NCBI GenBank assembly: GCA_964421845.1
Contig: CAYQYY010000007.1
Span: 46,804 to 110,803 of the forward strand
Source: an uncultured Clostridia bacterium
Lineage (GTDB): Bacteria; Bacillota; Clostridia; Tissierellales; Sedimentibacteraceae
DNA length: 64,000 bases
Direction: 5' to 3'
The notes under the pieces were generated by a model, which did no database searches, was not told the DNA's origin, and was given only the letters and a program-made list of their open reading frames with translations. Shown here piece by piece: positions 2,127 through 28,112 of the stretch. The position numbers and the translations under genes are program-made. Positions within the stretch are counted from its first letter, which is position 1, and each line of letters opens with the position of its first letter.

Positions 2127-2163
2127 TTAATTACATACATTAATATTGTTATTAATTGAAAGT

Positions 2164-11562: not shown

Positions 11563-11629
11563 AACAGCGTGTAACTTTTAAATATAACGTCCCCCTTTAT
11601 TTTAATCATACGCTTTTTTCTTTTTTTTA
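11563..11629 (+). repeat. attL core: 67-bp direct repeat identical to 28046-28112
   Basis: AACAGCGTGTAACTTTTAAATATAACGTCCCCCTTTATTTTAATCATACGCTTTTTTCTTTTTTTTA aligned base by base with the right copy; 67/67 identical. Confidence 0.9.
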
Positions 11630-11733
11630 TTTAAGCGTTGAAATTAGAATAAATATTGATAATTCAAAGGGTTGCAAAAATGAGAGTTTATAATAAAGTA
11701 GGAATACCAAAAAAGGAGACTATATTATAAACT

Positions 11734-12690
11734 ATGGCACGAATAAAAATGCAAGATAAGAAACTAAAAGACATTGAAATTTCAACTGCTTGGGAAGAAT
11801 ATGAAAAAGAATTAAAAGTTAGAGGTTTAAGCAAGTTTAGTATTATAACTAAAAATTCTATATTCAAGGATTTTAGTAAATTCTGTAATACTGAAGCTAC
11901 CAAAACAAATGAATTAAATGAAAAGTTAGTTAACAATTATATCTTATGGCTGATGGAACGAGGAAATAAAAACACTACAATTAATAGTAAGATGACTAAC
12001 TTTAAACCTTTTGTCAATTGGTGTATTGAAAAAGAATATTGTGAAGAATTTAAAATTAAATCAGTTAATGCTGGACAAACTATTAAATCCACTTATTCAG
12101 TTAGTGATTTAGAGAAAATATTAGAGAAACCTAACATAAAAAAATGTACATTTGCAGAGTATAGAAACTGGGTGCTTTGCAATTATTTCCTTGCAACAGG
12201 AAACAGGTTAAATTCAGTTGTCAACATAAAGATTAAGGATATTGATTTTAATAATAATTTGGTTAAATTATCTGAAACTAAAAATAAGAAAGAACAGATA
12301 ATACCAATAACAATTCAACTAAGTAATATTTTAAAGGAATATTTGACATATAGAAACGGTGAACCAAATGATTATTTATTTGTTAATATAGATGGATTAC
12401 CATTGAAAAGAACATCCTGTCAGCAAGCTTTAATTCATTATACAAAAAAACAACATGGAATAAACATTAGTTCAATTCATGCTTTTCGTAGGACATTCGC
12501 AACAATGTATATTCAAAATGGCGGTAACTTATTTGCATTACAACAACTACTTGGACATTCAAAATTAGAAACCACAAGAAAATACGTGGTATTAGCATTA
12601 AAAGATTTGCAAGATAACTATGAACTATATAATCCTTTGGACGTTTTGATAAACAAGAATAAAAAAGAAAGAATTAAATTAAAAAAATAA
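11734..12690 (+). CDS. int: Tyrosine recombinase / phage integrase
   Basis: 318 aa. Catalytic residues in the expected order: LATGNRLNS (Arg), HAFRRTFAT (His-x-x-Arg), LLGHSKLETTRKY (His...Tyr). Adjacent to attL. Confidence 0.9.
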   Translation: MARIKMQDKKLKDIEISTAWEEYEKELKVRGLSKFSIITKNSIFKDFSKFCNTEATKTNELNEKLVNNYILWLMERGNKNTTINSKMTNFKPFVNWCIEKEYCEEFKIKSVNAGQTIKSTYSVSDLEKILEKPNIKKCTFAEYRNWVLCNYFLATGNRLNSVVNIKIKDIDFNNNLVKLSETKNKKEQIIPITIQLSNILKEYLTYRNGEPNDYLFVNIDGLPLKRTSCQQALIHYTKKQHGINISSIHAFRRTFATMYIQNGGNLFALQQLLGHSKLETTRKYVVLALKDLQDNYELYNPLDVLINKNKKERIKLKK

Positions 12691-12761
12691 TGTATAAATA
12701 TTAAAATTATATTAAAATAAACATAGAATTAAATTAAAAAGAAATGGCTAAAAATAAACGC

Positions 12762-12790
12762 TTGACAAGTAATTTTCTACGTATTATAAT
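12762..12790 (+). promoter_or_regulatory. Consensus SigA promoter TTGACA-N17-TATAAT
   Basis: Read directly. Lies 30 nt upstream of the ATG at 12820. Confidence 0.65.
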
Positions 12791-12819
12791 GTGTATAAAT
12801 AATACATGGAGGTAATAAA

Positions 12820-13074
12820 ATGAAAGATTATTTATTTATACTATCAGAATCAAAAAAGGAAGTACAGGAAATCCAGCAGACTAATCCAATATACATTATA
12901 TACGATAACTACTTGCAGAAGTATTACGGTGAAACAGTTAAAGAGAACGAGGATTTTATACCTATGGACTTGGGAGATAAAATTATTATAGTATATTCGA
13001 TAGAGGATATAGATGAAGATTCTACTGAAAATATTTTTGATACAATGCAAGATATGTTATACATGAGGGCGTAA
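12820..13074 (+). CDS. Hypothetical acidic 84-aa protein
   Basis: GGAGG RBS, consensus promoter upstream and terminator downstream. No recognisable motif. Confidence 0.55.
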   Translation: MKDYLFILSESKKEVQEIQQTNPIYIIYDNYLQKYYGETVKENEDFIPMDLGDKIIIVYSIEDIDEDSTENIFDTMQDMLYMRA

Positions 13075-13088
13075 AAGCCCTTTTTTTT
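13067..13088 (+). terminator. Rho-independent terminator
   Basis: GGGC-gtaaaa-GCCC followed by T8. Overlaps the stop codon of the 84-aa ORF. Confidence 0.55.
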
Positions 13089-13147
13089 ATTGAAAATTCA
13101 ATTGTTACGAAAATATTAAAATATATTAAAATAATTTAATAAAACAC

Positions 13148-13176
13148 TTGACAACGTATTTGGGGTATGTTATACT
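13148..13176 (+). promoter_or_regulatory. SigA-type promoter TTGACA-N17-TATACT
   Basis: Read directly. It would give a leader of about 300 nt before the 966-aa ORF. Confidence 0.55.
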
Positions 13177-13478
13177 TATTGATGAGGGATTGTATATTTT
13201 TTTAAACAACAATATCCCTACATCATTTTGAGGAGGGAATTTATTTTTTTATTACTTTTATTCAGTTGGTTATATTTATCTCAATTTACATGATTATATC
13301 ACAACTGAATTAGTATGTCAACACTAAATTTTACATAAATGAAATAATTTTTAATTAGTAAGTAATACGATAAAATTCCTGTTTTATTAGGTTAGACAGA
13401 AAAACAAACGTTGGAATTTCAACACTTAAAATTTAACAAAATTATTGGAATTATATTAAAAAGAGGGGTAAGTAATAA

Positions 13479-16379
13479 ATGGCACAGTTACAAAATCAAA
13501 TACATATGTACAGTATAGATACAAGTTTTTTCTATACAACTAAAGAAACAAAATTATTGGAAGAAATAAAAAACCTTCAGAACATTAATAAAAAAGAGTT
13601 AAAACAGCCATATGAGAAAAAGAGAAAAGAAATAAAAAAGTTTAATGACAAATTAAAAGAGAGTGAAGTGTATTTAGAATATAGGGATGTACTTGACAAG
13701 CTAAAACAGTTATATAAATTGCGTAAAAGCTTTATTGAAAAAGGAATTAATAAAAAATCGCACGAATTGCATAATCAATTTTCAGAGAATGAAACAACAA
13801 TTAAGGAATTATATAATTATAAACAAGTATTAAAAATTGAAGTTGATAAAATAGAATTTTTAGATATAAAAGATACGGAAGAAAATAAAAAATATGAAAC
13901 TAACAAAAAGGAAATTGAAAAGTTAGAAATTAAATTAGAAAAAGAATTTAATAAAAATATTATAAGGAACATTACAAAAGAATTTACACCAGCTGATACA
14001 ATATCTAATTTTGAAAGTAGCTTGACAAGAACATTAAAAATTAAAACAAATGACACAACTGATAAATTGATTGTAATACGTGTTTATCACTATAATTTAT
14101 TTAAAAATTTAATTAAAAATGGTTTTAATCATAATAAAAAACATTACATATTCTTTACATCATCTTCTGGACAGCTTAAAGAAAAGAAAGCTATGTTTAT
14201 GGAAGAAAATGCTTTTAATGAACATAAAAACACAATCTATTGTGGCTTGACTAAAGATAAGATAAGCGAAAAGAAAGTAATAGTTAATAAGTATCTTTCA
14301 TATTTAGCGTTGACAGCTACAGCAAGTGAAAAATGGGAGAATTTTAATATTGATGAAGTTTTAATCGTTGATGATATGGAAAGTATTTTACCAAATACAG
14401 AAGTTAAATTTATTGATTATGATAATTATGATGAAAATGGTTTGTGGAAAGTTACAACAGAAAAGAAAGATATTAAGATTCCCGTTATGGATGGTGCTGG
14501 AATTTGTCTTGATTACACGGGTATTATCCGCCTTCCGTTTCTCAAAGGATTAGTTGTGCAGTTTTCATTCAAAGATTTTATTAAACAGAAAAGAATGGAA
14601 GAAAAAAGGGATGCAAGAAAAAAAGGTATTAAATTAACTGAAACTAAAATAGGTAAAGTTAAAGATATATGGAATAAAGAATATGACATAATTCAAGACA
14701 ATATTAGATATATATTCACAAAATCACAGTTTAAAATGTGGAAGTATTATGATAGTTGGGAAGAGTACAAGACAGCCTTCAAGGAATATAACTGTGAAGC
14801 ATCTAAATGTATTGAAGAAAGCAAACAATTTAAGAAAGCAAAATTTAGTTATCAAGCATTGCAATCACTATATGATTTATCGGATATTGAATTAAAGGAA
14901 ATTTTAAAAGATACCAATGAAACGATCGAAAATATAGGCAAAGATAGACAAACAATCTTAAAGACATTAGGTGCTACTGAATACAATGAAAAGAAAAATA
15001 ATTGGCAAGAAGCTTTAATGCTTTACCCAGAAATGCTGAATGACTTATATTCCAAAAGGATATTAAACGAAACTAAGGCAAGTATCATTAACAATTCAAG
15101 GTATGGAAAGTTTAAAGTTGATGGAACATACACTTTTATATTACCAGATGTATATGCTTTTGCTGAATGGTTATTCTGCCACAATGACAATCCAAAGGGG
15201 TTATTAAAAAATGGTGAAGTATCATGTAATCATTTTGCAGATAATCAAGAAGTATCATTAACCAGAAGTCCTCACTTAAATTTTAGTCATTGTGTAAATA
15301 AAAATGTAATAAATGATGATACAAAGAAATGGTTTAAAGCAAGTGGTGTTTATACAAGCATATTTTCAACTAATTCGCTTGTTATGGCTTATGATGTAGA
15401 TGGTGATGAAACATTAATAATATCAGAACCTACTATAATTAAATCAGCAAAAAGAATTAAGGAAAGACATAATTTTATTCCATTGTATTATGAAATGAAA
15501 AAAGGTAAACCAGCAAAGATAACAAATAAGAATTTATATAATTCAATGACTTCAGCATTTGGAAAAAGTGTTGGTGATACCTCAAACAATATAACTAAAA
15601 TATGGAATAAGGGTAATATTGATGAAGATGAAATAAAAGCTATGGATTATTTAACAATGTGGGCGAACTTCATCATAGATTTTACTAAAAGTCAATTTCT
15701 TCCTACTAAATCTGATGAAATGAGTAAGTTTTTAAGTCAATATACAAATAACAAATTACCTCACTTTATCAGATATATAAAAGATAAAAATAAAAACATT
15801 TATAAGATGAAAACCAGTGATAGAGAAGCAGCATTAGATGAAAAATATGCAATAACAAATAGTAGTGTTGTTAATAGGTTAGAAGAATTGGTATCTAATC
15901 CACCTAAAACATTTAAGGCTAAAAATTGTGGTAAATTTGATTATAAAATGCTTTTACATAATAAAAATATTGATACATCCACCAAACAAGCAAAGGCAAT
16001 TATAAGCAAGTTTAAATATCTAACTGGAAATAAAAAGTTTTACAGCAAGGAAGATGTAGAAGAAAAACATAAATATGCTAAAACATTTATAAAAGATGAA
16101 ACTTTAAAGATTAATAATAATGAAATTTATGTTGTTGATGTATTAGTTAAATATTATTATCACGATATAAAAAGCGATAACAAGAGAAGTTTGTGGGATA
16201 GTTTCGGGGATATTATATTGGAAAACATTAAGGAAAATATTCCAGCTAATACAATTCTCTGTGAAAAATGTGGGGAAAGAATTACTAAAACAAACAATAG
16301 AATAAAATATTGTCCTGAATGTGCAAAAGAAATTAATGCAGAAAAAACTAAAAACAATAAATATAAATTAGCAGTTTGA
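13479..16379 (+). CDS. YonO / cellular-RdRP-like two-barrel (double-psi beta-barrel) RNA polymerase candidate, with N-terminal Lys/Glu-rich coiled coil and C-terminal zinc ribbon
   Basis: 966 aa. MAYDVDGDE (D639-D643, nt 15393-15407) is preceded by TRSPHL (nt 15261-15275), about 40 aa upstream. MDGAGICL...IIRLPFLKG at residues 337-357. C-terminal CEKCGx13CPEC. GAGGGG RBS. Confidence 0.55.
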   Translation: MAQLQNQIHMYSIDTSFFYTTKETKLLEEIKNLQNINKKELKQPYEKKRKEIKKFNDKLKESEVYLEYRDVLDKLKQLYKLRKSFIEKGINKKSHELHNQFSENETTIKELYNYKQVLKIEVDKIEFLDIKDTEENKKYETNKKEIEKLEIKLEKEFNKNIIRNITKEFTPADTISNFESSLTRTLKIKTNDTTDKLIVIRVYHYNLFKNLIKNGFNHNKKHYIFFTSSSGQLKEKKAMFMEENAFNEHKNTIYCGLTKDKISEKKVIVNKYLSYLALTATASEKWENFNIDEVLIVDDMESILPNTEVKFIDYDNYDENGLWKVTTEKKDIKIPVMDGAGICLDYTGIIRLPFLKGLVVQFSFKDFIKQKRMEEKRDARKKGIKLTETKIGKVKDIWNKEYDIIQDNIRYIFTKSQFKMWKYYDSWEEYKTAFKEYNCEASKCIEESKQFKKAKFSYQALQSLYDLSDIELKEILKDTNETIENIGKDRQTILKTLGATEYNEKKNNWQEALMLYPEMLNDLYSKRILNETKASIINNSRYGKFKVDGTYTFILPDVYAFAEWLFCHNDNPKGLLKNGEVSCNHFADNQEVSLTRSPHLNFSHCVNKNVINDDTKKWFKASGVYTSIFSTNSLVMAYDVDGDETLIISEPTIIKSAKRIKERHNFIPLYYEMKKGKPAKITNKNLYNSMTSAFGKSVGDTSNNITKIWNKGNIDEDEIKAMDYLTMWANFIIDFTKSQFLPTKSDEMSKFLSQYTNNKLPHFIRYIKDKNKNIYKMKTSDREAALDEKYAITNSSVVNRLEELVSNPPKTFKAKNCGKFDYKMLLHNKNIDTSTKQAKAIISKFKYLTGNKKFYSKEDVEEKHKYAKTFIKDETLKINNNEIYVVDVLVKYYYHDIKSDNKRSLWDSFGDIILENIKENIPANTILCEKCGERITKTNNRIKYCPECAKEINAEKTKNNKYKLAV

Positions 16380-16728
16380 TTTAGAAAAATTTGTCTAATC
16401 AATGGATAAAGCGTAGAAAACACAGTGTTTGACAAAAAAGGTAAAAAAAGTTTTCCTTGGATAAATCGAACAAATCTTTTTGACAATCGAAAATTTAGTA
16501 TCACTATAGGGGAAGGAAAACAGTTTTCCTAAACATAGTATGAATTAATATACTTGCATTTTAAATGCTACATGAACAATATATTATGTTCCCCTATTTA
16601 ATCTTTAAACAATGCAGGGGAGAATGCCACTCCATGAGATATTAATTACTTCTCTCTTTGTGCAGAAGGTTTGACTTTCTGCCCTGTGTTGTTTAAAGAA
16701 AATAAATTAGATTAAAGGGGTATTGAAT

Positions 16729-16920
16729 ATGGAAGAAATAAAAATAATCAACTTAATACAAGCAAAAAGATATATTAAAAATGGTGTTTTTCCGATTAGA
16801 TTAGAAATTAGTAAATATATTACTAAACCAACAGATGATGATGATGTATTAGTATTTATATTTAACAAAGAAGATACAACAGAAGTTTGGGAAAAGTGGA
16901 AAAATAGAACTTTAGCATAA
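16729..16920 (+). CDS. Small hypothetical protein (DUF5659-like pattern)
   Basis: ATG at 16729 lies 8 nt after AAAGGGG and is preferred over TTG at 16723. 63 aa. Confidence 0.5.
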   Translation: MEEIKIINLIQAKRYIKNGVFPIRLEISKYITKPTDDDDVLVFIFNKEDTTEVWEKWKNRTLA

Positions 16921-16928
16921 TAATTAAT

Positions 16929-17028
16929 AATGTGAACATTTCACTATGTTAATAATCAAGGGTATGAACATTTCAGTATATAAGGGTATGAACAGTTCAG
17001 TATGTAAGGGTGTGAACAGTTCAGTATC
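16929..17028 (+). repeat. Iterons: three tandem 24-bp repeats AAGGGTRTGAACAKTTCAGTATRT plus one degenerate upstream copy; candidate replication origin
   Basis: TGAACA cores at 16933, 16965, 16989 and 17013; the last three are exactly 24 bp apart. Lies directly upstream of the initiator-like gene. Confidence 0.7.
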
Positions 17029-17030
17029 CT

Positions 17031-17066
17031 ACTATATTAATGTACTATATTAAATTACTATATTAA
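17031..17066 (+). repeat. Three 13-bp-spaced copies of ACTATATTAA (AT-rich unwinding or DnaA-like box region of the origin)
   Basis: Copies at 17031-40, 17044-53 and 17057-66, read directly. Confidence 0.5.
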
Positions 17067-17203
17067 TTATATTGAAATTCCTATTCAGAATTTGTGCATA
17101 AGTTTTAAAAGATAAAGTTCAAGGTCAAAACATTCCAATAAGATAAAGGAATTATTTATGTATTGTTAATATTATAAAATTAAAATTAGAGAGGTATTGA
17201 AGT

Positions 17204-18382
17204 ATGAAGAAAAGAGAATTAGTTTACAAAAGTAAGGGTTTATATTATGAGTTGGATAAAAAGGGAATGGTTACAACTGGTTTTGCACAAGCAGATAATA
17301 ACATTATGAAAGAATTATGTATTGATTTCCACCCTAATGTTGCTATTGTATATTTTATGTTAATTAGTCATAGACATGGTGATAAGAATAATATTGAAAA
17401 ATATAATCAATGTTTTCCTACACAAGATATGTTAAGTAAAGAAACTGGATTGCATAAAGATACTATTGTTAAGTGTATTAGAACATTAGTAGAAAATGAA
17501 TATGTATTACATAGACAAGGTAATAGTCAACTTGCTAATCAATATTATTTCCCACAAGAAGAATTTTATCAAGGTGAAGGTGATTACTTACTTGATATTG
17601 TTGAGGATATAATTGATGATGAAGTAGTTGAAGAAATTCCCACTAATGATGATAACTTACCTTTCTTATCTGGTGATATTTTAGATAATAACGAAAGTTT
17701 TACACCAAAGGTAAAATATGTTAATGAAATAGATAATGATGATATATTTGATGATATATTGCCACCAATTAATAGTTCTGATGGATATGTTAAAGTATTC
17801 TATGATAATATGGTTAAATATTATGATATAACAGATGAAACTTTGGCAAATAATAATTATATAGATAAGAAAGTCAATTCCCTTATTGGATATGTTAAAG
17901 AAGAATTAGTTAAAAATAATATATTAGATATTACTGCTGATAAAGTTGTTACAGATATACTAAAAGGCAATAGGAAGTCATTCACAATTTCTTTAGGTGG
18001 TGCAAGTATAACTAAGGATTTTAATAAGTGTACTTACATTATTAGTTGTATTCAAAGTAACTTTACAAAAAAGAAATTGCCAGCATTGATTAAGAAACAT
18101 AGCAAAGATAAAATAGTTGATAAAGTTGTTGCTGATGATAATTTGGCTGATAGCTTAAATGATTTTTATGCTGATGATGATATGTTTGATTACATGAAAA
18201 AAAATTCTATTAATTCTAATAAAAAGGTTGATTTATCAAACGAAAAATATAATGGTGATTGGAAGTTTGAAAAGCAAAATAATGTAATTACAATAAATAA
18301 AAATAAATTTCCTATTGCGGAAGATGAAGATTTCTTTTTTAATGATGATGCAAAAAAGCAATTTGAGGAATTATTTGGTTAA
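17204..18382 (+). CDS. Replication initiator / replisome organiser candidate (N-terminal winged HTH, acidic C-terminal half)
   Basis: 392 aa. wHTH FPTQDMLSKETGLHKDTIVKCIRTLVENEYVLH. Sits next to the iterons. No enzymatic motif seen. Confidence 0.5.
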   Translation: MKKRELVYKSKGLYYELDKKGMVTTGFAQADNNIMKELCIDFHPNVAIVYFMLISHRHGDKNNIEKYNQCFPTQDMLSKETGLHKDTIVKCIRTLVENEYVLHRQGNSQLANQYYFPQEEFYQGEGDYLLDIVEDIIDDEVVEEIPTNDDNLPFLSGDILDNNESFTPKVKYVNEIDNDDIFDDILPPINSSDGYVKVFYDNMVKYYDITDETLANNNYIDKKVNSLIGYVKEELVKNNILDITADKVVTDILKGNRKSFTISLGGASITKDFNKCTYIISCIQSNFTKKKLPALIKKHSKDKIVDKVVADDNLADSLNDFYADDDMFDYMKKNSINSNKKVDLSNEKYNGDWKFEKQNNVITINKNKFPIAEDEDFFFNDDAKKQFEELFG

Positions 18383-18451
18383 ATAACGTTTGCAATAATA
18401 TATAAATAGTAGTAAAATATTGGTAAAATATATTATATGGGGGTAGAAATA

Positions 18452-19021
18452 ATGAGTGATGGTCTTGCTTGGGCAATAATTATTTTAGTTCCAACAGCAT
18501 TTATATTAATAATTGTTTATGCAGTTAATAAATCAAGTAAAGATAAAATTATTGTTTCAGAAGCAAGTAAAAATTTATTTGCGACTTATGATAAGGTTAT
18601 TGTGCTTAGTGAAAACATAATAAATGGTATTTTTACTTATGTAGCATTTGATAATAAAAACAGAAAATTGATAATACAATTATACAATACTGCAATTAAG
18701 TATATTGACTATGATAAAATTGTTGGTGTTGAATTAATTGAAGATGGTTCAACAAGTTTAAGTTTTGGAAATATTATAGGTGGTAGTATTTTAGCTGGTG
18801 AAGCTGGTGCTATAATAGGTGGTATGAATAGAAAAGAAACAGTAAGTAATTTATCCATAAAAATTAGTTTAAATGATTTTAATACACCTTCTTATGAACT
18901 TATCATGTTTACTGGTGTAAAGGTTAAAAAAAGTGAAAAAGTTTATATTGAATCAATAAAACATTCAAATGAAATTATTGATACAATTAAATATATCATA
19001 AATAATAAACAAAAAATATAA
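18452..19021 (+). CDS. Membrane-anchored hypothetical protein (one N-terminal TM plus Gly-rich hydrophobic segment)
   Basis: ATG at 18452 follows a GGGGGTAG RBS. TM AWAIIILVPTAFILIIVYAV. GNIIGGSILAGEAGAIIGG segment. Confidence 0.55.
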   Translation: MSDGLAWAIIILVPTAFILIIVYAVNKSSKDKIIVSEASKNLFATYDKVIVLSENIINGIFTYVAFDNKNRKLIIQLYNTAIKYIDYDKIVGVELIEDGSTSLSFGNIIGGSILAGEAGAIIGGMNRKETVSNLSIKISLNDFNTPSYELIMFTGVKVKKSEKVYIESIKHSNEIIDTIKYIINNKQKI

Positions 19022-19041
19022 TTAAAGAGGGGTAGAAAAAT

Positions 19042-19281
19042 ATGTTTATTGAAGTAAAAAAAGGTGTTTTAATTAATGTAGATAACATAATAAGTTTTCA
19101 ATATTATAATGCAGATGATGATATTAATAAATTTACCATTGAAGCAATATTAAAAGATTGTGAAGGCATTATTAATGATGATTTGAATAAAAATCATAGA
19201 ACGGTATATATTGCAGAAAATATTGATAAAAAGAAATTTGAACAATTTTTAAAAGTTTTTGATGTTGTTAGTTTTAAATAA
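19042..19281 (+). CDS. Hypothetical 79-aa protein
   Basis: GAGGGG RBS. No motif recognised. Confidence 0.5.
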   Translation: MFIEVKKGVLINVDNIISFQYYNADDDINKFTIEAILKDCEGIINDDLNKNHRTVYIAENIDKKKFEQFLKVFDVVSFK

Positions 19282-19374
19282 AATTGTAATTTATTTATAA
19301 ACTTAAGTATTAAGACATTTCGCTAATAGGAGTGTCTTTTTTAATGCAAAAAATATAATAAAGGGGTAAGTAAT

Positions 19375-19882: not shown

Positions 19883-19883
19883 G

Positions 19884-19912: not shown

Positions 19913-19983
19913 AGTTAAATTAAAAGAAGATAAAAGATAATAACTAAAATTGCAAATACCAATTAAATTGGTTTGTGATTACA

Positions 19984-20556
19984 ATGCAATATGAATATAA
20001 GAGAGATGTTAATTGGAAAAAAGATTTAGCAATTGGAAGTAAACAAGAAAGTAAGTTTGAAATATTTATGAAATCATTTGGATATGTTGTTGAAGATGTT
20101 AGTAAAGTAAAAGAATATCAGCAGATTGATGTTGATTTTAAAGTTACTAATACAACAAAAGGTGTAACTAATTTATTTGAAGTTAAGCAAGATAAAACTT
20201 TGGCTAAACATGATTACGTTAGAAGAAGATTAATAATTGAGGACATATCAAGTGTTAAAGATAGATATGGCAATGTTGTTAATACAAATGGCTGGTATCG
20301 TAAATGTAAGTCTGATTATATAGTTATTGGAAATAATGACAGTAAGATGTATATGTACAAGTTAGCTGATGTTAGGGAATATATTGGTTTGTTTGCTGGT
20401 AATAAGGATAGAGTTATTTATTATCAGTTGGGTAATTCTATGATGTTTGGCTTGTATCAAAAGAAGTTTGATAGTTGGTTAATAGATAATAATAAGATTT
20501 GTAAGGTATTTTATTTGGATAGTAACAAATGTAGATGCAGAAAGGATGTGATATAG
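19984..20556 (+). CDS. PD-(D/E)xK nuclease-fold candidate
   Basis: QQIDVDFKV...(13 aa)...LFEVKQD fits the D...ExK restriction-endonuclease-like motif. Start is ambiguous (GTG 19975 or ATG 19984) and the RBS is weak. Confidence 0.4.
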   Translation: MQYEYKRDVNWKKDLAIGSKQESKFEIFMKSFGYVVEDVSKVKEYQQIDVDFKVTNTTKGVTNLFEVKQDKTLAKHDYVRRRLIIEDISSVKDRYGNVVNTNGWYRKCKSDYIVIGNNDSKMYMYKLADVREYIGLFAGNKDRVIYYQLGNSMMFGLYQKKFDSWLIDNNKICKVFYLDSNKCRCRKDVI

Positions 20557-20970
20557 ATGCCTAAATTAAGAGGTGCTGATGGAAAGTATAAACCAATCAC
20601 AGGGTTAAGTAATGAACAATCGCAAGCTATATTTATGTTAGTGTATGGTGATTATAAATATAATAAAGATATATATGAGGAATTAAACGTTCCTAAATCA
20701 ACATTTTACCATTGGTTTACGCAAGATTTATTTGTTGAGGAATTAACTAAAGCAAGAAATGCAAAGTTTAAAGAAATGAGTAATAAAGCATTGAAAAAGC
20801 TTGATGAACTATTGGATAGTCAAGATTCAAGAAGTGCTATAAGGGCTGTGGAGATGGTATTAAAAGAAAATAATCACTTGCGAGATAAATTAGACGTTGA
20901 TGTCAACACCACACAAGAAATAAAAATAACATTATTTGATAGTGAAAACGAAGAAGAAACAGAGGAATAA
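20557..20970 (+). CDS. terS: Terminase small subunit candidate
   Basis: 137 aa. HTH IYEELNVPKSTFYHWF and an acidic C-terminal tail. It is the last ORF before terL. Confidence 0.5.
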   Translation: MPKLRGADGKYKPITGLSNEQSQAIFMLVYGDYKYNKDIYEELNVPKSTFYHWFTQDLFVEELTKARNAKFKEMSNKALKKLDELLDSQDSRSAIRAVEMVLKENNHLRDKLDVDVNTTQEIKITLFDSENEEETEE

Positions 20971-21511
20971 CAGGTAAATTGGTTGAAAATGGGAATGTAT
21001 AAGGTTTGTATACTATTTGGACAAAATCATTAATTATGTCGCAAAATGAAGATTAGGTATCATAATCCATATTATAGTAAGTAAATAATTACATATAACA
21101 AGTATAATAAACGTTGATATTGCAAGGTTAATGATGATTATTCATTGTTTGCCTTGCTTTATTTATGGAAATGTATAAAATATTAGTGCTGATTTAAGCT
21201 AAAATAGCAAGTTTGAAATGTATATTGGTGTATATTTATTAGGATAAAAGCAAAGTTTTATTATAGGGGTTACCCCTTTATATTGAAAAGGTCGATTTAG
21301 TCATTGTAAAATAAGATACAGATATAAATTTAACCTTAACTAAAACTCACTACAAAACTTTTAAACAAACGCAATTATCCAAACGATTATTTACTCAACC
21401 AACAACTAAACTTAATAATTTACCCCTAAAACAAGCTAAAAAGGTAAGTAAAAGGGGTATCAGATACAGGCAGACATTGAAATATATGTTTGCTTTTTTA
21501 TATGTAAGTAG

Positions 21512-22747: not shown

Positions 22748-22765
22748 TAACAAATAAAAAAGGAA

Positions 22766-24082
22766 GTGATTAAAATATTTTATATAGATAAAAATGTTGA
22801 ATTAACAACAGAACATATTAAAAAATATATTGAGATATTTAAAACTCAATACTTACCAAAATTAAAAACCAATAAAGCATATTATGATGCAAAAAATCCA
22901 CCGATTATGAATAGAGTAATGGCAGATCCAGACAAACCAAACAACAAGATTGCAGTTCCATATGTAAAATACGTTTCTACCCTGATTAATGGATTCTTTT
23001 TAGGTGGAAAAGCTATTAATTATACAATTCCAGATGAACAACTTGAAGCAATTATAAACGCAAATAAGGAAACTGAACAATCGCACAATATCGACATTGG
23101 TAAGAATTGTAGTATATACGGCGTTTCTTATGAATTATTGTACCTTAATAATAACAGACAATTAAAAATGACATTATTAAATTCAGAACAGGTAATACCT
23201 ATATATGATAATTCCATTGATGGTGATTTATTATATTGCATACGTTTTTGGGATGAAACTAACGTATTAGACAATAAAACAACAACAAATATTGAATTAT
23301 ACACAAATACTGATATAAAAATATTTAAGATGGAAAACAATTCAATATCTTTGGTGGAAGTTAAACAGCACTATTTTTTAACTTGTCCTGTAAATGTATT
23401 TAAAAATAATAATTCCTTAACTGGTGATTCAGAGTGTGTATTTAAGTTAATTGATGGTTTAGATGTCGCTTTGAGTGATACAGCAAATTTTAGACAAGAA
23501 TTAAATGATAGCTATCTTTGCATCTTCAATGGAAACTTGACAGATTCTGATTTAAGACTAATGAAATCAAATCGTATCTTCAGTATCGATAGTGACGAAA
23601 ATAATTCAGCGAGAATTGAATGGCTTAATAAGGATTCAAACGACACAGAGAACGAGAATTATAAAGACAGACTTGAAAATATGATTAAAAAGTTTTCATT
23701 TGTTGCCGATCTTGAAACTATTGCAACAAGTCATGTAAGTGCTGAATCAATTAAAAATGGCAGTTATGGAATTGAAGGAATTGTATCAGATAAAGAATCA
23801 TTTTTCAGACAAGCATTATTAAGACGTTTACAATTAATTTGTAATATTTATAATTTGTTCGGTAATGATTTTGATACTGAAAATGTTAAAATAACATTTA
23901 TTAGAAATATACCAAAAAATCTAAGTGCTATTGCCGACAACATAGCAAAATTAAAAGATACGGTTAGTACAAAGACACTTTTACAGCAAGTCCCGTTCGT
24001 AAATTCAGTATCAGATGAATTAAGGCAATTGGAAGAAGAAAAGAAACTTAATTACTACAATGAAAATACAAAAGATAATTAA
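22766..24082 (+). CDS. Portal protein (SPP1 gp6-like)
   Basis: 438 aa, immediately after terL. N-terminal KAYYDAKNPPIMNR resembles the SPP1-family YYxGxHxI region. Confidence 0.7.
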   Translation: MIKIFYIDKNVELTTEHIKKYIEIFKTQYLPKLKTNKAYYDAKNPPIMNRVMADPDKPNNKIAVPYVKYVSTLINGFFLGGKAINYTIPDEQLEAIINANKETEQSHNIDIGKNCSIYGVSYELLYLNNNRQLKMTLLNSEQVIPIYDNSIDGDLLYCIRFWDETNVLDNKTTTNIELYTNTDIKIFKMENNSISLVEVKQHYFLTCPVNVFKNNNSLTGDSECVFKLIDGLDVALSDTANFRQELNDSYLCIFNGNLTDSDLRLMKSNRIFSIDSDENNSARIEWLNKDSNDTENENYKDRLENMIKKFSFVADLETIATSHVSAESIKNGSYGIEGIVSDKESFFRQALLRRLQLICNIYNLFGNDFDTENVKITFIRNIPKNLSAIADNIAKLKDTVSTKTLLQQVPFVNSVSDELRQLEEEKKLNYYNENTKDN

Positions 24083-24248
24083 TCACCTTATTGGTGTTTT
24101 TTTATTGTCTTTTTTAAGTATTAGACGTTAAACAAATACTATAAAGGTATTGCTAATTTGCAATACTTAATAACTATCACTTACGAGGGATAGCCAATAA
24201 AAATTAGAAAAGGAATGTGCCACTTACGAGGGGTGCAAGGTATATAAA

Positions 24249-24794
24249 ATGGAAGATAATAAAGATAACATCAACGTTGATAATAAAGATAAAGATACTG
24301 ACACTATAACTATTTCTCAAGCTGATTTAGACAAGAAAATCCAACAAGCTATTTATGTGAATAGTCAAAATGAAAAGAAGAAGTATGAAAAGGAACTACA
24401 AAGACAAAAAAGTTTAATGGAAATGGATGAACAATCCCGTTTAATTGAGGAAAAGAAACAGCTTCAAGAACAATTAGCTGAAATTCAATTAACTAATTTA
24501 AAATATGAAACAGCAAAAGTTTTAAATAATAAGGGAATGAGTGCAGAGTTTGTAGATTTTGTAGTTGGTAATGATGCAGAAACAACACAAGCTAATATTG
24601 ATAAACTTGATAAATTGTTTAAAGCAGAAGTATTAAAAGAAGTAAGTAAAAGAGTTACTTCAACTGAAACAAAGAATAGCAATAATTCAAACAATAATGG
24701 AATTACAAAAGAACAATTTAGGAAAATGTCAATTGCTGAACAAACAAAATTGTTCAATTCTAATCCAGAGTTATATAAACAATTAACAAAATAA
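24249..24794 (+). CDS. Scaffolding protein (DUF4355-like coiled coil)
   Basis: 181 aa, Lys/Glu/Gln-rich helical protein, located between the portal and capsid genes. Confidence 0.6.
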   Translation: MEDNKDNINVDNKDKDTDTITISQADLDKKIQQAIYVNSQNEKKKYEKELQRQKSLMEMDEQSRLIEEKKQLQEQLAEIQLTNLKYETAKVLNNKGMSAEFVDFVVGNDAETTQANIDKLDKLFKAEVLKEVSKRVTSTETKNSNNSNNNGITKEQFRKMSIAEQTKLFNSNPELYKQLTK

Positions 24795-24803
24795 TAAATA
24801 CGG

Positions 24804-24845
24804 ACAGCTTGAAATGATATATAGCTGTTTTTTTAATGGAACAAA
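24804..24845 (+). terminator. Rho-independent terminator after scaffold gene
   Basis: ACAGCT-N23-AGCTGT followed by a T8 run. Confidence 0.6.
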
Positions 24846-24875
24846 TAAAAATTAAAAATAAGGATGGTACATAAA

Positions 24876-25661
24876 ATGGCACTATACGAAAATTTCATAT
24901 TAGAAAATAAGGTTAAAGGATTTTTAGATACTCAACTTAATATGGGACAATTTTACACTCACGACGATTCATTAACAGAGAATGCAGGATTAAAAAAAAT
25001 CGTAAATGTTTATGATGCAGTTGGTTCAGTAGAAACGCTGGCAGTTGGTGTTGGAAATGATGAAGCTAATGATGTAGCTGTTAGCTTTACACCTGTAGAA
25101 TATGAAGTAGCTACAACTCAAGGTCGTCTACCTTTGTTTGATGAAAATATTATGCAAGACCCTATGTCTTTAGATACAGGTTTATCAAAATTATCTGCTG
25201 AAATGGTAAATGAAATTAATTCAAAATTCATTACAGAATTAGGGAAAGCAACTTTAACTTCTGAATATCCAACTACAGGTATTACATTTGATGCAATTGT
25301 AGATGGACTTGCTAAAGTTGGGGAAAATGAAAGTGGATATTTCCTATTAATTAACGTAAATCAACGTGCACAGTTAAGAAAGAATTTAAAAGATTCTTTA
25401 CAGTATGTTGAAGCATTTGCAAGAACTGGATATATTGGTTCTGTTAGTGGTGTTAACGTTTACACTTCAAATGCAGTTCCAGCTGATACAGCTTATCTTG
25501 CTAATCCTGAAGCAGTAACAGTTTTCACAAAGAAAGCAGTTGAAGTAGAACCAGATAGAGATGCTAACACAAGAAAAACAACTTTTTATGTTAGAATGGT
25601 TAATGTAGTTGCAAATACTGATTTAGGTAAAGTAGTTAAATTGACAAAAGCAGTAGCATAA
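24876..25661 (+). CDS. Major capsid protein candidate
   Basis: 261 aa from ATG 24876 (AAGGATGG RBS), preferred over ATG 24864. Sits after the scaffold gene. Composition is typical of small HK97-fold capsid proteins. Fold not verified. Confidence 0.6.
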   Translation: MALYENFILENKVKGFLDTQLNMGQFYTHDDSLTENAGLKKIVNVYDAVGSVETLAVGVGNDEANDVAVSFTPVEYEVATTQGRLPLFDENIMQDPMSLDTGLSKLSAEMVNEINSKFITELGKATLTSEYPTTGITFDAIVDGLAKVGENESGYFLLINVNQRAQLRKNLKDSLQYVEAFARTGYIGSVSGVNVYTSNAVPADTAYLANPEAVTVFTKKAVEVEPDRDANTRKTTFYVRMVNVVANTDLGKVVKLTKAVA

Positions 25662-25668
25662 ATAATTT

Positions 25669-25699
25669 AGGGTGGGGTAATACTCACCCTTATTTTTTT
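25669..25699 (+). terminator. Rho-independent terminator after capsid gene
   Basis: AGGGTG-gggtaatact-CACCCT followed by TATTTTTTT. Confidence 0.7.
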
Positions 25700-25722
25700 A
25701 ATAAATAAGAGAGGTGAATAAA

Positions 25723-26016
25723 ATGACACCAACGGAAAATATTCAAACATTAACAGGTTTTACAGATACAGCTAAAATTGATGTATTAATTTTATTGACT
25801 AAAAAAGAAATAGAAACATACACCAAAAGAATATATGATACTTTGACAATGGATTCTCTATTAACTGAAATGGTAGTTTTCAAAGTGCAAAAATTAGGCA
25901 ATGAAGCAACTAAGTCGCTAACATATAATGATACAACTCAATCATTTTTGACTGATTATCCTACACCTATTTTAAGACAATTAAACGAGTTAAAAAAGAG
26001 GGTGCGTTTGTTATGA
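25723..26016 (+). CDS. Head-tail connector / DNA-packaging (gp6-like) protein candidate
   Basis: 97 aa from ATG 25723 (AGAGAGGTG RBS). A short helical protein directly after the capsid gene. Confidence 0.45.
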   Translation: MTPTENIQTLTGFTDTAKIDVLILLTKKEIETYTKRIYDTLTMDSLLTEMVVFKVQKLGNEATKSLTYNDTTQSFLTDYPTPILRQLNELKKRVRLL

Positions 26017-27608
26017 TTGGACACCAAATATTAGAAAACAAACTAATTAATCAATATAACAAAATGTATGATATATTCGCACAAAATAACGTCTTAAAAC
26101 TTAATTTAAGCAACGACAATGTTATTCAAGGGTTAATACAAGACGTAAAATCTGATAATGTTAATTCGACCTATAAAAAGGAGATTATAACACCTTATAA
26201 CACATTAAAGACTGGGGATTATATAACTCATACTTGTAATGGTAAAAGTATAAATTACATTTTAGAAAGTCAAATAGATACTGAAATAGGGTGCGATAAG
26301 GCATATCTTTTGGAATGTCCACTATCAATAAAGATTTTTGACTGGAATTATACAGATATACGAGAATATCCAATAGCATTAAAAAATAATAATGCAAGTT
26401 TAGGGGTTACTGAAGGTGTAATTTCAATTACAAATAATTCAAGTTTTGAAATAATAATGAAGTATGACATACATACCAGAAGTTTTGTCAAAAGTGATAA
26501 TTTAATAAATGGCATAGAACACGCTAAAATAACAAGGATACTATTAGATGGTTTAGCTTTTAGGGTTATAGGTGTTAATCACTTAATATCTAAAGGTTTA
26601 TTAGTAATATCTATTGAAACCACAAACATAACACCCGCCGATAATCTTGAATTAGGTGTTGCAGACTATACAACATATTACAGAGAACCTATTGATTATA
26701 ACGGTTTAATTGATGCTGAAATATTGAAATATGAACAAAATGCCACGATAACAAAAGATGTTTTAGCAAATATGGATATTTCAAATATTGTTAAGAAATT
26801 AAAGACAGGACAAACAGCTAATAATAATATTACTGTTAGTATATCAGCAGTTGGAGATAATGGACTATTAATTTTAAATGATGGTATAATTCGACTTAAA
26901 AATCAAATTTCTTTTGAGGATGATATAAATACAACAACAGTTACTTTATCATTCCTTTATGGTGGAATTACTAAAACTTTAACTGTAAATGTAACGATCG
27001 AAAAACAAGACAAAGTAATTACTGATGAAGATATAGTTGTCGCTGAAATGCCGAAGTATGAAACTACTGCTTTTATTGGTAAAGATGTTATTGCTGGTGA
27101 AGATATAACTTCATTAATTTTAAGGTTGAAAGCAGACCAGATAGCAAATCCAGAAGTTGATACTTATATTTCTTATGTAGATACTGACAATTTATTGACT
27201 TTAACTAATAGAGTAGTAACACTAACTAATGTAATTCCAGCGACAGCCACAGACAATGAAACCGTTGCAAATATCAGCTTTGTAAAGGGTGAAGCATTAA
27301 GGACAATTTCAGTATTTGTTACAATCGAAAAGCAAGATGATGTTGCCCCACCAGACTTGGTTATAACTGGCGAATATTTTGATATTTATAATGGAGATAC
27401 AAATGATTATAGCATTAATACAACTGACCCTGTTTATTGGAGTTTAAGAGGTGAAAATGCAAGTAAATTTACACTTAATACTAATGGAACAGCTAATACT
27501 TGTAGTGTTACTGCTGGAAGTCAAGTTAAACAAGGTGTAAATGTTACCCTTGTAGCCATTGTTAATGGATTTGAATATACAGTTGAGATAATTGGATTAA
27601 GTTTTTAA
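26013..27608 (+). CDS. Structural repeat protein (two ~95-aa tandem repeats plus C-terminal Ig-like domain); possible head fibre, adaptor or minimal tail
   Basis: 531 aa. Repeats both end in VTIEKQD (nt approx 26715-27011 and 27045-27338). The C-terminal ~85 aa look Big_2/Ig-like. ATG overlaps the upstream stop (ATGA). Confidence 0.5.
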   Translation: MIGHQILENKLINQYNKMYDIFAQNNVLKLNLSNDNVIQGLIQDVKSDNVNSTYKKEIITPYNTLKTGDYITHTCNGKSINYILESQIDTEIGCDKAYLLECPLSIKIFDWNYTDIREYPIALKNNNASLGVTEGVISITNNSSFEIIMKYDIHTRSFVKSDNLINGIEHAKITRILLDGLAFRVIGVNHLISKGLLVISIETTNITPADNLELGVADYTTYYREPIDYNGLIDAEILKYEQNATITKDVLANMDISNIVKKLKTGQTANNNITVSISAVGDNGLLILNDGIIRLKNQISFEDDINTTTVTLSFLYGGITKTLTVNVTIEKQDKVITDEDIVVAEMPKYETTAFIGKDVIAGEDITSLILRLKADQIANPEVDTYISYVDTDNLLTLTNRVVTLTNVIPATATDNETVANISFVKGEALRTISVFVTIEKQDDVAPPDLVITGEYFDIYNGDTNDYSINTTDPVYWSLRGENASKFTLNTNGTANTCSVTAGSQVKQGVNVTLVAIVNGFEYTVEIIGLSF

Positions 27609-27621
27609 GGGTGGTGAGTAG

Positions 27622-27873
27622 ATGGATTTTAATGCAATATTAAATACTTTTGGTTTTCCAATTTCTGTGGCTATTGCTTGTGGTTGGTTTATATATAAAA
27701 TGTATACTGATAGTACAAAGCAAAATCAAGAACGGGAAGAACGTAATTATAAAGTTTTAGAAAAATTTTCAGTATCAATTGATAAGTTCGCGGATATTCT
27801 TGATGGATACGAAAAAAAATTATCAACAATTGAAAATGATGTTAGGGAAATAAAGATTATTGTAAATAAATAG
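27622..27873 (+). CDS. BhlA/UviB-family holin-like protein
   Basis: 83 aa. Single N-terminal TM FGFPISVAIACGWFIY followed by a charged coiled coil (QEREERNYKVLEKFS...), the BhlA architecture. Confidence 0.55.
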   Translation: MDFNAILNTFGFPISVAIACGWFIYKMYTDSTKQNQEREERNYKVLEKFSVSIDKFADILDGYEKKLSTIENDVREIKIIVNK

Positions 27874-28045
27874 TTTACAAATATTAAACATAACAAATTT
27901 AAAAGGGATTGACATAGTTTTTATAATATAGTAAGCTAAAAATACCACTTATATTATAAACTCTTAAAATCCCTTTATTATAAACGTTAATTTGATAGTT
28001 AGAACACGCTAAATTTGAACGAAAAATCACATGGTAATTATTACT

Positions 28046-28112
28046 AACAGCGTGTAACTTTTAAATATAACGTCCCCCTTTATTTTAATCATACGCTTTT
28101 TTCTTTTTTTTA
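28046..28112 (+). repeat. attR core: 67-bp direct repeat identical to 11563-11629
   Basis: Base-by-base identity with attL. Sequence diverges immediately outside both ends. Confidence 0.9.

Follow-up and report, generated by a model that had tools for sequence, protein, structure and literature searches.

How can an integrated element of 16,550 bp, which carries a head and packaging module but none of the genes for a tail, be propagated? The question is raised by a locus of Sedimentibacter, which we analysed within a window of 64 kb (the whole stretch of DNA considered here). A sequence-only reading had proposed a capsid-forming satellite that borrows tails and has a replication and transcription module foreign to PICIs, or alternatively a tiny podovirus whose entire tail is one 531-aa protein. 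The assignment of a YonO-type polymerase, that of a stopper protein and the finding of sibling elements support the first proposal, and we consider that the element is probably an integrated, capsid-forming, tail-stealing phage satellite to which a YonO-type polymerase has been added.

A histidine kinase gene and murA flank the element, whose ends are, as first noticed, perfect 67-bp direct repeats (69/70 matches when 70 nt are compared). These ends recur in independent assemblies: attL adjoins a 92%-identical integrase in a contig from IMG/VR, and another contig breaks inside attR. The GC content of 0.269, against 0.329 and 0.334 in the flanks, bears out the AT-richness claimed for the element, as does the coding strand the claim of a single-strand array, every ORF with family support being on the + strand. 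All ORFs are intact (18/18), and profile searches recovered the proposed gene order from the integrase to the holin-like ORF (Table 1). The non-coding share had been underestimated at about 2 kb and amounts to 2,687 nt (16%). The proposed search for related sequences yielded at least ten siblings but no empty attB, and the search for a circular junction found none.

Table 1. Coordinates of the features of the element, numbered along the window.
Feature	Position	Strand	Evidence and remarks
attL, left copy of the 67-bp repeat	11563..11629		same attL in independent contig L017
Tyrosine integrase, 318 aa	11734..12690	+	PF00589 1.3e-30, phrog_1 8e-41
84-aa ORF	12820..13074	+	perfect sigma70-like promoter 12762-12790 upstream; terminator 13065-13082 at end
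Control region, 404 nt, 5' of polymerase gene	13075..13478		promoters and palindromes; no plausible small ORF
Predicted YonO-type single-subunit two-barrel RNA polymerase, 966 aa	13479..16379	+	phrog_8308 8.5e-200
65-aa ORF	16723..16920	+	kept in siblings; phrog_31036
Iteron-type origin	16958..17084		24-bp x 2.9 copies (16958-17027), then 13-bp x 2.9 repeats to 17084
Replication initiator, 392 aa, HTH_36/DnaD_N-like	17204..18382	+	PF13730 6.8e-8; phrog_678/270 'replication initiation'
194-aa membrane protein	18437..19021	+	N-terminal TM segment; PF27000 PH_gly_zipper in siblings
Three small ORFs, 79, 97 and 75 aa	19042..19882	+	97- and 75-aa ORFs kept in all siblings
193-aa ORF	19975..20556	+	directly upstream of terS in every sibling; invariant D52-x-D54 ... 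E69-x-K71
Small terminase subunit, TerS, 137 aa	20557..20970	+	PF13022 1.8e-13; phrog_7344 8.6e-13
Conserved non-coding terS-terL region	20971..21511		Rfam search: no family
Large terminase subunit, TerL, 411 aa	21512..22747	+	Walker A GGAGSGKS; PF04466 (Terminase_3) 1.2e-55; PF17288 9e-15
SPP1-type portal, 438 aa	22766..24082	+	PF05133 9.8e-81
Scaffolding protein (DUF4355), 181 aa	24249..24794	+	PF14265 3.2e-19; phrog_172
Major capsid protein, 265 aa	24864..25661	+	phrog_544 4.1e-22; PF25209 Phage_capsid_4 in siblings
Head-tail adaptor, 100 aa	25714..26016	+	phrog_132 2e-9
Predicted head-closure (stopper) protein, 531 aa	26013..27608	+	AF2 models, Foldseek, remote homologues, hhalign
83-aa single-TM, coiled-coil, BhlA/UviB-like (holin-like) protein	27622..27873	+	phrog_9829 1.6e-8; phrog_2429 1.5e-5
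attR, right copy of the 67-bp repeat	28046..28112		78 nt upstream of murA; contig L022 breaks within

Judged by sequence, the head set is complete, with portal, scaffold, capsid, adaptor and a predicted head-closure protein. Profile matches back the genes proposed for packaging and the head, from TerS and TerL with its GGAGSGKS motif to the gp6-like connector, and the same holds for the iterons and their wHTH initiator. The alignment suggests that the 193-aa ORF is a PD-(D/E)XK-like nuclease candidate, with no sequence support from Pfam, PHROG or PDB. In agreement with the earlier description, Pfam and PHROG searches of the element gave no profile match for a tape measure, tube, sheath, baseplate, endolysin or cI/Cro pair. 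The ORFs left unassigned, seven small proteins of about 790 aa together, could not make up a tail set, and no lysin match was seen among them. As for the proposed BhlA-like holin, a small protein with one hydrophobic segment (residues 6-24) is indeed encoded, and its gene comes last here as in all the siblings, but its kinship to BhlA/UviB-type proteins stands at a PHROG match of only 1.5e-5. Since the element encodes its own heads but no tail or lysin genes, tails and lysin are probably borrowed from a helper phage.

The giant polymerase-like ORF is, from its alignment, a full-length homologue of YonO, the single-subunit two-barrel RNA polymerase of SPbeta (36% identity over 98% of its length, E 3e-157). 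The residues D639-x-D641-G-D643 and the RSPHL motif are invariant in the alignment, so that the catalytic DxDGD is intact. Identity rises to 47-55% with the YonO proteins of clostridial SPbeta-like phages, against 36% for that of Bacillus SPbeta, and in other siblings the place of this gene is taken by that of another, divergent two-barrel polymerase. The control region preceding the gene contains a sigma70-like promoter on the + strand (13148-13176), a perfect antisense promoter on the - strand (13321-13293) and two TTGAAATTTCAA-type palindromes (13090-13101 and 13408-13427); the AAACGTTGAAATTTCAAC palindrome is common to the element and an SPbeta-like phage, and lies beside YonO in both.

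What would this polymerase transcribe? Terminator-like sites are enriched in the element (15 found, 3.4 expected), and one directly follows the capsid gene (25669-25690). In the terS-terL region, a 5' block (20971-21337) contains the AATGTATA motif three times and a long hairpin with covariation and a T-run (about 21113-21166), whereas a 3' block (21338-21511) is made up of a leader rich in CA, a CCCCT/AGGGG hairpin and an intrinsic terminator. This terminator (21468-21495 plus T6) stops about 10 nt short of the terL start and shows compensatory changes. The lack of a flap domain, a point taken up in PMC5467207, suggests that YonO-type enzymes may ignore such terminators. Most likely, the polymerase serves the terL-to-holin operon, from which the conserved intrinsic terminator would bar ordinary transcription coming from upstream; the late genes of the helper may be a further target. 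The terS-terL region does not co-vary with the polymerase type and persists in a sibling devoid of any polymerase, and no counterpart to it was detected in the SPbeta-like loci compared; being kept regardless of the polymerase, it is not obviously a polymerase-specific promoter. This retention would fit the action of a helper or host factor at the region. On such a reading, a helper factor would switch on the late operon of the same satellite, leaving the polymerase another main task, either priming or activating the iteron origin in place of the pri-rep primase of PICIs, or transcribing early genes while the helper shuts off host transcription. Indeed, the gene sits between the integrase and the origin and initiator, as pri-rep does in PICIs, and the element lacks a primase. 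DnaD-like initiators, however, normally recruit host primosome proteins (DnaD/DnaB-type loading), and a dedicated primase is not required with such an initiator. Furthermore, SPbeta YonO, the one characterised member of the family, is specific for the late structural and lysis genes (PMC5467207), and we hold another main role to be doubtful.

The 531-aa protein begins with a double beta-barrel (about residues 1-225), continues with two cadherin/Ig-like repeats and ends in an Ig-like domain. The best viral structure matches of the AF2 model of the N-domain (pLDDT 82) in Foldseek are 'head closure knob' proteins (TM 0.6-0.67), and a single barrel was matched by the neck protein of Chi, by XkdH, by a portal-vertex chain of the lambda virion, by a chain of a stopper-terminator complex and by SPP1 gp16. 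Comparison with SPbeta YomX by hhalign gave a probability of 84% (E 7e-6), and a homologue, P0030, is located between the head genes and YomW/YomV/YomU-tube in a clostridial SPbeta-like prophage. The stopper fold, the relation to YomX and a relative placed just before tail genes lead us to assign the protein, on predicted structure and remote homology, as a head-closure connector and not a tail. For this ORF, the structural check that had been proposed thus returned a stopper and not a tail. The fold, the Ig-like domains and the homology to a protein in the YomX position led us to reject the 531-aa protein as the whole tail of a tiny podovirus, which removes the basis of the alternative first offered.

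A broader form of that idea, an autonomous minimal virus in which adaptor and 531-aa protein form a stubby podovirus-like tail or plug, the Ig-like repeats bind the receptor, and the holin-like protein and host autolysins release the particles, draws on the size of the protein, far above that of an ordinary stopper, on its three exposed terminal Ig-like domains, typical of adhesins, on the very name of its top structural matches, and on a polymerase, replication, packaging and holin-like gene set that looks self-sufficient. But the N-domain fold fits stopper and neck proteins of long-tailed phages and not a nozzle, knob or tailspike, the Ig-bearing homologue in the SPbeta-like prophage precedes tail-completion, tube and tape-measure genes, and profile searches of the element found no DNA-ejection, cell-wall-piercing or lysin function. 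We therefore regard a minimal virus as quite unlikely.

The siblings share one gene order, occupy three integration sites and in no case carry a tail or lysin gene. The sole sibling covered at both ends measures 16.55 kb, against 16.48 kb here. Modules are exchanged among them: TerL is either 37% or 73-82% identical, the capsid protein 35% or 60-72%, and the initiator module can be replaced by a helicase or other genes. A defective prophage remnant or a domesticated GTA-like head module that has lost its mobility, as the missing tail and lysis genes, the lack of a recognised repressor and the failure to find an empty site or circular form might suggest, is improbable in view of the perfect att repeats, the intact integrase and other ORFs, the free exchange of modules and a tail-less architecture that recurs at three sites, at the same size in the one sibling covered at both ends, which argues against decay.

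Returning to the satellite, which phage would help it? There is no helper in the 64-kb window. An SPbeta-like phage is most likely the helper: outside the siblings, phages of this kind have the closest relatives of the polymerase, of the stopper domain and of two smaller proteins. Of these two, the 84-aa ORF is 40% identical to an 86-aa ORF that lies upstream of YonO in such a phage (contig L015), and the 194-aa membrane protein shares 43% identity with a gene product of the SPbeta-like prophage L013. The clostridial SPbeta-like phages have a GC content of 0.26-0.28, matching that of the element. The head genes are not SPbeta-like, so tail compatibility would depend on the stopper alone. A helper-linked signal would cause the host RNA polymerase to start at the sigma70-like promoter (13148) of the polymerase gene, a promoter flanked by two palindromic operator-like sites of a kind also present beside YonO in an SPbeta-like phage. 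The element would then excise through its 67-bp att sites and replicate from the iterons, and TerS and TerL would fill small capsids, built from the 265-aa capsid protein, with DNA of roughly unit length. The adaptor and the YomX-like stopper would close the heads, the latter serving as the docking surface for pre-assembled tails of the helper siphovirus, which would supply the lysin as well.

The mode of action would thus resemble that of cf-PICIs such as EcCIEDL933, yet the element departs from several of their defining features. As the SatelliteFinder cf-PICI model is outlined in PMC10085698, the likeness lies in the terminal integrase followed by a unidirectional gene array, the absence of tail genes, a size fitting a small capsid and a family spread over several chromosomal sites. 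By the same outline, the element differs in lacking an AlpA/MerR/Stl regulator, a primase-replicase, a prohead protease (it has a scaffold instead) and an HNH nuclease, in its holin-like gene, which the model forbids, in its YonO-type RNA polymerase, in its Sedimentibacter host, outside the host families named there, and in its probable helper, an SPbeta-like phage of roughly 130 kb as against a temperate phage of roughly 40 kb. It resembles SPbeta itself (Spbetavirus; PMC5467207) in having a homologue of YonO whose catalytic motifs are the same, a neck protein related to YomX, a small membrane protein of the BhlA type and a long non-coding leader before the structural operon (about 1.2 kb from the P_YonO primer site to yonK in SPbeta, 0.54-0.94 kb here). 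However, SPbeta is a complete siphovirus of 134 kb, the leaders have no sequence similarity, and Terminase_3, the SPP1 portal, DUF4355 and Phage_capsid_4 are unrelated to YonG/F/E/D/B. The Streptomyces satellites Mulch and Flayer and other recent capsid-encoding satellites are likewise small and integrative, encoding encapsidation genes of their own and relying on a helper to complete the virion; in the passages of PMC10690885 that describe them, key replication genes are absent, unlike the origin and initiator found here, and no polymerase is mentioned. P4-like satellites and PLEs are also integrative, have replication functions of their own and exploit virion proteins of the helper. Rather than encoding a capsid, portal or terminase large subunit themselves, P4 and PLE remodel the capsids of the helper. 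In profile searches, no gene of the element matched their hallmark families.

In conclusion, possession of its own YonO-type RNA polymerase sets this element apart from any described phage satellite, and the mosaicism of its siblings, as seen in their sequences, indicates an actively recombining and transferring family.

The element is bounded by two identical 67-nt direct repeats lying 16,483 nt apart, and the 16,550 nt that they bracket have a GC content of 0.269, as against 0.329 and 0.334 in the flanks, so that the perfect repeats around AT-rich DNA described in the sequence-only reading stand. These repeats are not an assembly artefact of the window, since they recur in independent assemblies: the IMG/VR contig L017 carries an identical attL adjoining a 92%-identical integrase gene, and contig L022 breaks inside attR. 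The element's neighbours are a sensor histidine kinase gene (ending at 11503) on one side and murA (starting at 28191) on the other. The MurA protein shares 91-92% identity with Sedimentibacter sp. and S. hydroxybenzoicus proteins, and the host is therefore a Sedimentibacter. No tRNA gene was found in the window. Non-coding DNA is substantial, as had been noted, but at 2,687 nt it somewhat exceeds the estimate of about 2 kb. The search for an empty attB yielded only contigs with an identical MurA that break inside att or have another upstream neighbour, and a response-regulator look-up for the empty site returned no record. Contigs of 16.9-17.6 kb were considered as free circular genomes, but assembly breaks explain them more simply, because each has an end at the att repeat or close to it, or contains flanking DNA.

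The gene list drawn up from the sequence was borne out by Pfam and PHROG scans, which recovered a tyrosine integrase (PF00589, 1.3e-30), an HTH_36/DnaD_N initiator, TerS, a Terminase_3 TerL, an SPP1-type portal, a DUF4355 scaffold, an HK97-type capsid and, as a phrog_132 match, the head-tail adaptor. Iterons (24-bp x 2.9 and 13-bp x 2.9) lie upstream of the initiator gene. The last gene product, of 83 aa, has one N-terminal hydrophobic or transmembrane segment and a weak BhlA/UviB-type match (phrog_2429, 1.5e-5), such matches being weak to moderate overall. Among the element ORFs the same scans gave no match to a tail tube, sheath, tape measure, baseplate, fibre, endolysin or cI/Cro repressor, and the absence of a tail, an endolysin and a cI/Cro pair had already been read from the sequence. 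The only HTH matches in Pfam and PHROGs are those of the Rep initiator and TerS, with none beside the integrase, and no small ORF was found in the control region upstream of the polymerase gene. The head module has no close cultured relative, since no match to the element as a whole came up among 50,697 phage records searched at the nucleotide level, the capsid has a single weak phage match and the portal is about 30% identical to portals of ~48-kb Firmicute phages.

The 531-aa protein encoded after the adaptor is central to the question of a tail. At a cut-off of 65% identity it has only 28 close homologues; all those whose context was examined sit in sibling elements. An exhaustive profile (HMM) search also retrieved remote relatives of its first ~225 residues. 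One of these, P0030, bears the Pfam domain YomX_N and is located in an SPbeta-like prophage, where head genes precede it and YomW, YomV, YomU (tube) and, further on, a tape-measure gene follow it; another bears YomX_C. In hhalign, the deeper profile of the N-domain aligned to the SPbeta neck protein YomX with a probability of 84% and an E of 7e-6, and the shallow family profile failed to align. Likewise, a first model built on a shallow alignment left the N-domain unusable, with cadherin/Ig matches only, and the deeper alignment fixed this: AlphaFold2 then predicted a confident double beta-barrel (pLDDT 82, pTM 0.77). The predicted viral structures closest to it are 'head closure knob' proteins (TM 0.6-0.67, E 1e-8 to 1e-10), and among solved structures its single barrels match the phage Chi neck, PBSX XkdH, a lambda virion portal-vertex chain, a chain of a stopper-terminator complex and SPP1 gp16. 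Residues 230-531 are predicted to fold into three Ig/cadherin-like domains. The stopper class (SPP1 gp16, lambda FII, XkdH) is characterized by a small beta-barrel encoded directly after the adaptor and ahead of the tail-completion genes; in the element the fold matches and the gene follows the adaptor, and it is the homologue P0030 that has YomW/YomV/YomU-tube behind it. Because of the YomX homology, the context of P0030 and these fold matches, the 531-aa protein is, as modelled, a stopper (head-closure) protein whose collar is decorated, and not a tail. In siphovirus connectors the stopper is the last head component and the docking surface for pre-assembled long tails.

The alternative of a very small temperate podovirus, with the 531-aa protein as its whole tail, has thereby lost its basis, the structural check having returned a connector fold; neither a tail hub or nozzle, nor a fibre or spike, nor an endolysin was found by Pfam, PHROGs or fold search. 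The preferred reading, a capsid-forming and tail-borrowing satellite, is supported by the element's own head and packaging genes and by the lack of tail and lysin genes. It would presumably depend on a helper. A cf-PICI is induced by a helper phage and travels in capsids of its own to which helper tails are attached. With cf-PICIs (PMC10085698), the likeness lies in the small size, the own capsid, terminase, portal, adaptor and connector, and the lack of a tail; of the SatelliteFinder core set for cf-PICIs, the element has the integrase, its own TerS, TerL, portal and capsid, and the adaptor and connector. That set also includes an AlpA/MerR/Stl regulator beside the integrase, a primase-replicase (pri-rep), a protease or head decoration protein and an HNH nuclease, which the element lacks, and the model forbids tail genes and a holin, where the element has no tail gene and a weakly matched holin-like gene. 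In place of pri-rep we find the initiator and its iterons, and in place of a prohead serine protease or head decoration protein, the scaffold. Instead of an HNH nuclease, a 193-aa ORF with a D..ExK motif precedes terS; its assignment as a PD-(D/E)XK nuclease was not retained, as the motif has neither profile nor PDB support. Unlike cf-PICIs, the element adds an RNA polymerase, and its replication and transcription module (initiator, iterons and YonO-type polymerase) differs, as first suspected, from what is known of described PICIs.

This polymerase, initially recognized as a giant polymerase-like ORF, is a full-length YonO homologue. The 966-aa protein matches phrog_8308 at 8.5e-200 and shares 36% identity with the YonO of Bacillus phage SPbeta in an alignment that spans 98% of the query (E 3e-157). 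The catalytic aspartates D639, D641 and D643 (DVDGD), together with G642, and R596-S-P-H-L, which holds the R-x-P motif of the two-barrel site, are invariant in an alignment of six homologues, SPbeta YonO and four metagenomic proteins among them. A PDB sequence search gave no match. YonO is an experimentally characterised single-chain relative of the multi-subunit RNA polymerases that transcribes the SPbeta late operon, and it is the only enzyme of its type for which DNA-dependent RNA synthesis and late-gene transcription have been shown (PMC5467207). Clostridial YonO homologues, from the satellite and from phages alike, carry a K/E-rich, coiled-coil-like N-terminal insertion of ~115 residues that is missing from SPbeta YonO. 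In three siblings (L001, L016 and L025) the same slot is occupied by another two-barrel polymerase of 894-908 aa, 23% identical to that of the window, which matches Pfam RdRP above threshold (43 bits) and has the motifs DFDAD (ADFDADG) and RNP (SRNP).

Several genes tie the element to SPbeta-like phages. The closest non-sibling relatives of the polymerase, 47-55% identical, are found in SPbeta-like phage contigs from anaerobic digesters, one of which (L014, 134 kb, with a 47%-identical YonO) carries YonO and an HU-like gene, then YonG_N, TerL and portal. The 84-aa ORF showed no similarity to SPbeta YonP; phage contig L015 has a relative of it (40% identity) ~2.5 kb upstream of YonO, and a gene product of prophage L013 shares 43% identity with the 194-aa membrane protein. 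At 0.26-0.28, the GC content of the clostridial SPbeta-like contigs equals that of the satellites and is below that of the host chromosome. By tblastn, SPbeta-like loci match the window only in the polymerase, the integrase (weakly, 22% identity), orf84, orf194 and the N-domain of the 531-aa protein. The element is not an SPbeta-like remnant, because its Terminase_3/SPP1_portal/DUF4355/Phage_capsid_4 head is unrelated to the YonG/YonF/YonE/YonD/YonB-type packaging and head genes, of which it has none. Contig L014 encodes ParA/CbiA-type and actin-like (ALP_N) partition proteins and, judging by these genes, may be maintained as a phage-plasmid; in L015 an IS605 OrfB/TnpB (Cas12f-like) gene separates the orf84 homologue from YonO.

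The search for sibling elements was successful: metagenome, MAG and IMG/VR loci share one gene order, namely integrase, two-barrel polymerase, small ORF, variable replication module, small ORFs, a conserved ~190-aa ORF, TerS, a non-coding region of 0.54-0.94 kb, TerL, portal, scaffold, capsid, adaptor, ~530-aa protein, 83-aa protein and element end. Siblings have a ResIII helicase or unrelated genes instead of the initiator. A scan of genome collections yielded one sibling only. The sibling of Firmicutes bacterium UBA5227, the only one with both ends in the data, has direct repeats 16,552 nt apart and so nearly equals the element in size. Among siblings, identity is either 37% or 73-82% for TerL, 35% or 60-72% for the capsid, and 41% or 95-98% for TerS. 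At least three sites are occupied: upstream of murA, beside a spo0A 3' fragment and a NUDIX gene, and upstream of spoVAC. Since the neighbours are a Spo0A_C fragment or spoVAC-spoVAD-spoVAE, some siblings may insert at the 3' end of sporulation genes. That the siblings keep one gene order and intact genes, occupy several sites and are mosaic speaks for an active mobile family rather than a decaying prophage. In L002 and L003 the 83-aa gene is followed by an ORF that could be right-end cargo or host flank.

Positions of the features discussed, in the window and in related loci
Locus	Feature	Position	Strand	Remarks
Window	attL	11563-11629
Window	Second, degenerate palindrome copy	13090
Window	Sigma70-like promoter	13148-13176	+	TTGACA-17-TATACT
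Window	Perfect antisense promoter	13321-13293	-	TTGACA-17-TATAAT with TG
Window	N-terminal insertion of the polymerase	13581-13928		Residues ~35-150
Window	terS-terL non-coding region	20971-21511
Window	attR	28046-28112
Window	NiCo (nickel/cobalt) riboswitch	59299-59391	+	77.6 bits, gathering score 37; unrelated to the element
L025	Second-lineage polymerase gene	3045-5726
L004/L005	Spo0A_C fragment	12064-12231		55 aa; then NUDIX and xerD-like genes
L007	Just upstream of spoVAC-spoVAD-spoVAE operon	12154 onward
L002	ORF after the 83-aa gene	12282-12956		224-225 aa; no Pfam match
L003	ORF after the 83-aa gene	11985-12662		224-225 aa; no Pfam match
L014	Partition genes	2198-5415
L015	IS605 OrfB/TnpB gene	7488-8699
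L017/L027	Slot lacking the polymerase gene	1323-4330		One contig, IMG/VR UViG_3300011715_000006

How is the polymerase gene itself controlled? A palindrome, AAACGTTGAAATTTCAAC, lies ~50 nt upstream of it in the element and in two siblings (L011 and L021), and in phage contig L015 it occurs on either side of YonO. Together with the degenerate copy it flanks both promoter-like sites, and these palindromes may be operator-like sites for a regulator not encoded by the element. The two promoter-like sites converge, with predicted transcripts overlapping by ~100 nt and a hairpin-rich leader of 300 nt following them, which suggests antisense or transcription-interference control. In L017, whose integrase and attL are as in the element, the polymerase slot is taken up by ~2.6 kb of non-coding, repetitive DNA in which the ORFs of all frames stay at or below 72 codons and Rfam gave no match. 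Its degenerate repeats of ~100 bp each contain a TTGAAATTTCAA palindrome (7 copies, at most 1 mismatch), and three TTATATTAGGGAGA units are present in addition. This array could be a set of promoters or operators, a decoy, or a set of small RNAs.

The region between terS and terL is conserved better across siblings than the flanking genes, and contains no ORF and no Rfam match, even with relaxed thresholds; Rfam gave no match elsewhere in the element or its siblings either. Its 5' block holds three same-strand AATGTATA motifs, out of eleven in the 64-kb window, and a long hairpin with a T-run showing compensatory changes, which suggests a packaging site and a terminator of the upstream operon. 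The 3' block consists of an unstructured CA-rich leader, a CCCCT/AGGGG hairpin and an intrinsic terminator whose stem covaries (two pairs) and whose T-run ends ~10 nt before the terL start. Transcripts reaching terL must therefore pass a terminator, and terminator-like sites are frequent in the element (15 against 3.4 expected). In SPbeta, a long non-coding leader separates the YonO promoter from the late genes (PMC5467207). Because of this terminator and the SPbeta-like leader arrangement, we propose by analogy that the element's polymerase would drive the terL-to-holin operon. Against this role, changes in the region do not follow polymerase type, and the polymerase-less sibling has kept it. 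Furthermore, a short-word BLAST for a late promoter or leader common to satellite and SPbeta-like phages gave chance-level matches only, the SPbeta P_YonO region, located via a published primer site, has no similarity to the satellite leader, and a covariance model of the 3' leader block found no counterpart in the SPbeta-like loci searched (best match E 0.57). The proposal is weakened by this lack of co-variation and of a counterpart; alternatively, the region may be a control site on which the helper or the host acts.

A bolder possibility, which we consider rather unlikely, is transcriptional piracy, in which the satellite polymerase would act on a resident SPbeta-like prophage, recognising its YonO-dependent late promoter and activating its tail and lysis genes. 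These genes would then be switched on by the satellite's own schedule, and tails would be obtained without the helper entering, or gaining from, a lytic cycle. In this scheme the polymerase-less sibling, with its palindrome arrays, would act either as a second-order parasite or as a decoy for that transcription system.

To our knowledge, P4-like satellites, PICIs, cf-PICIs, PLEs and PICMIs all use host or helper polymerases and manipulate helper regulators, and we know of no described satellite family with an RNA polymerase; our literature search found no paper linking satellites with a YonO-type enzyme. If true, a satellite with its own RNA polymerase would represent a new regulatory strategy for satellites. 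The YonO-type enzymes, seen as possible relics of a single-subunit ancestor of the cellular RNA polymerases (PMC5467207), would gain a second natural context. With so compact a genome (16.5 kb) and so few candidate promoters, how the enzyme recognises promoters and behaves at terminators could be tested directly. The helper would probably be SPbeta-like, the candidates being phages of ~130 kb, and capsid-forming satellites would be extended to the anaerobic Tissierellia of digesters and bioreactors.
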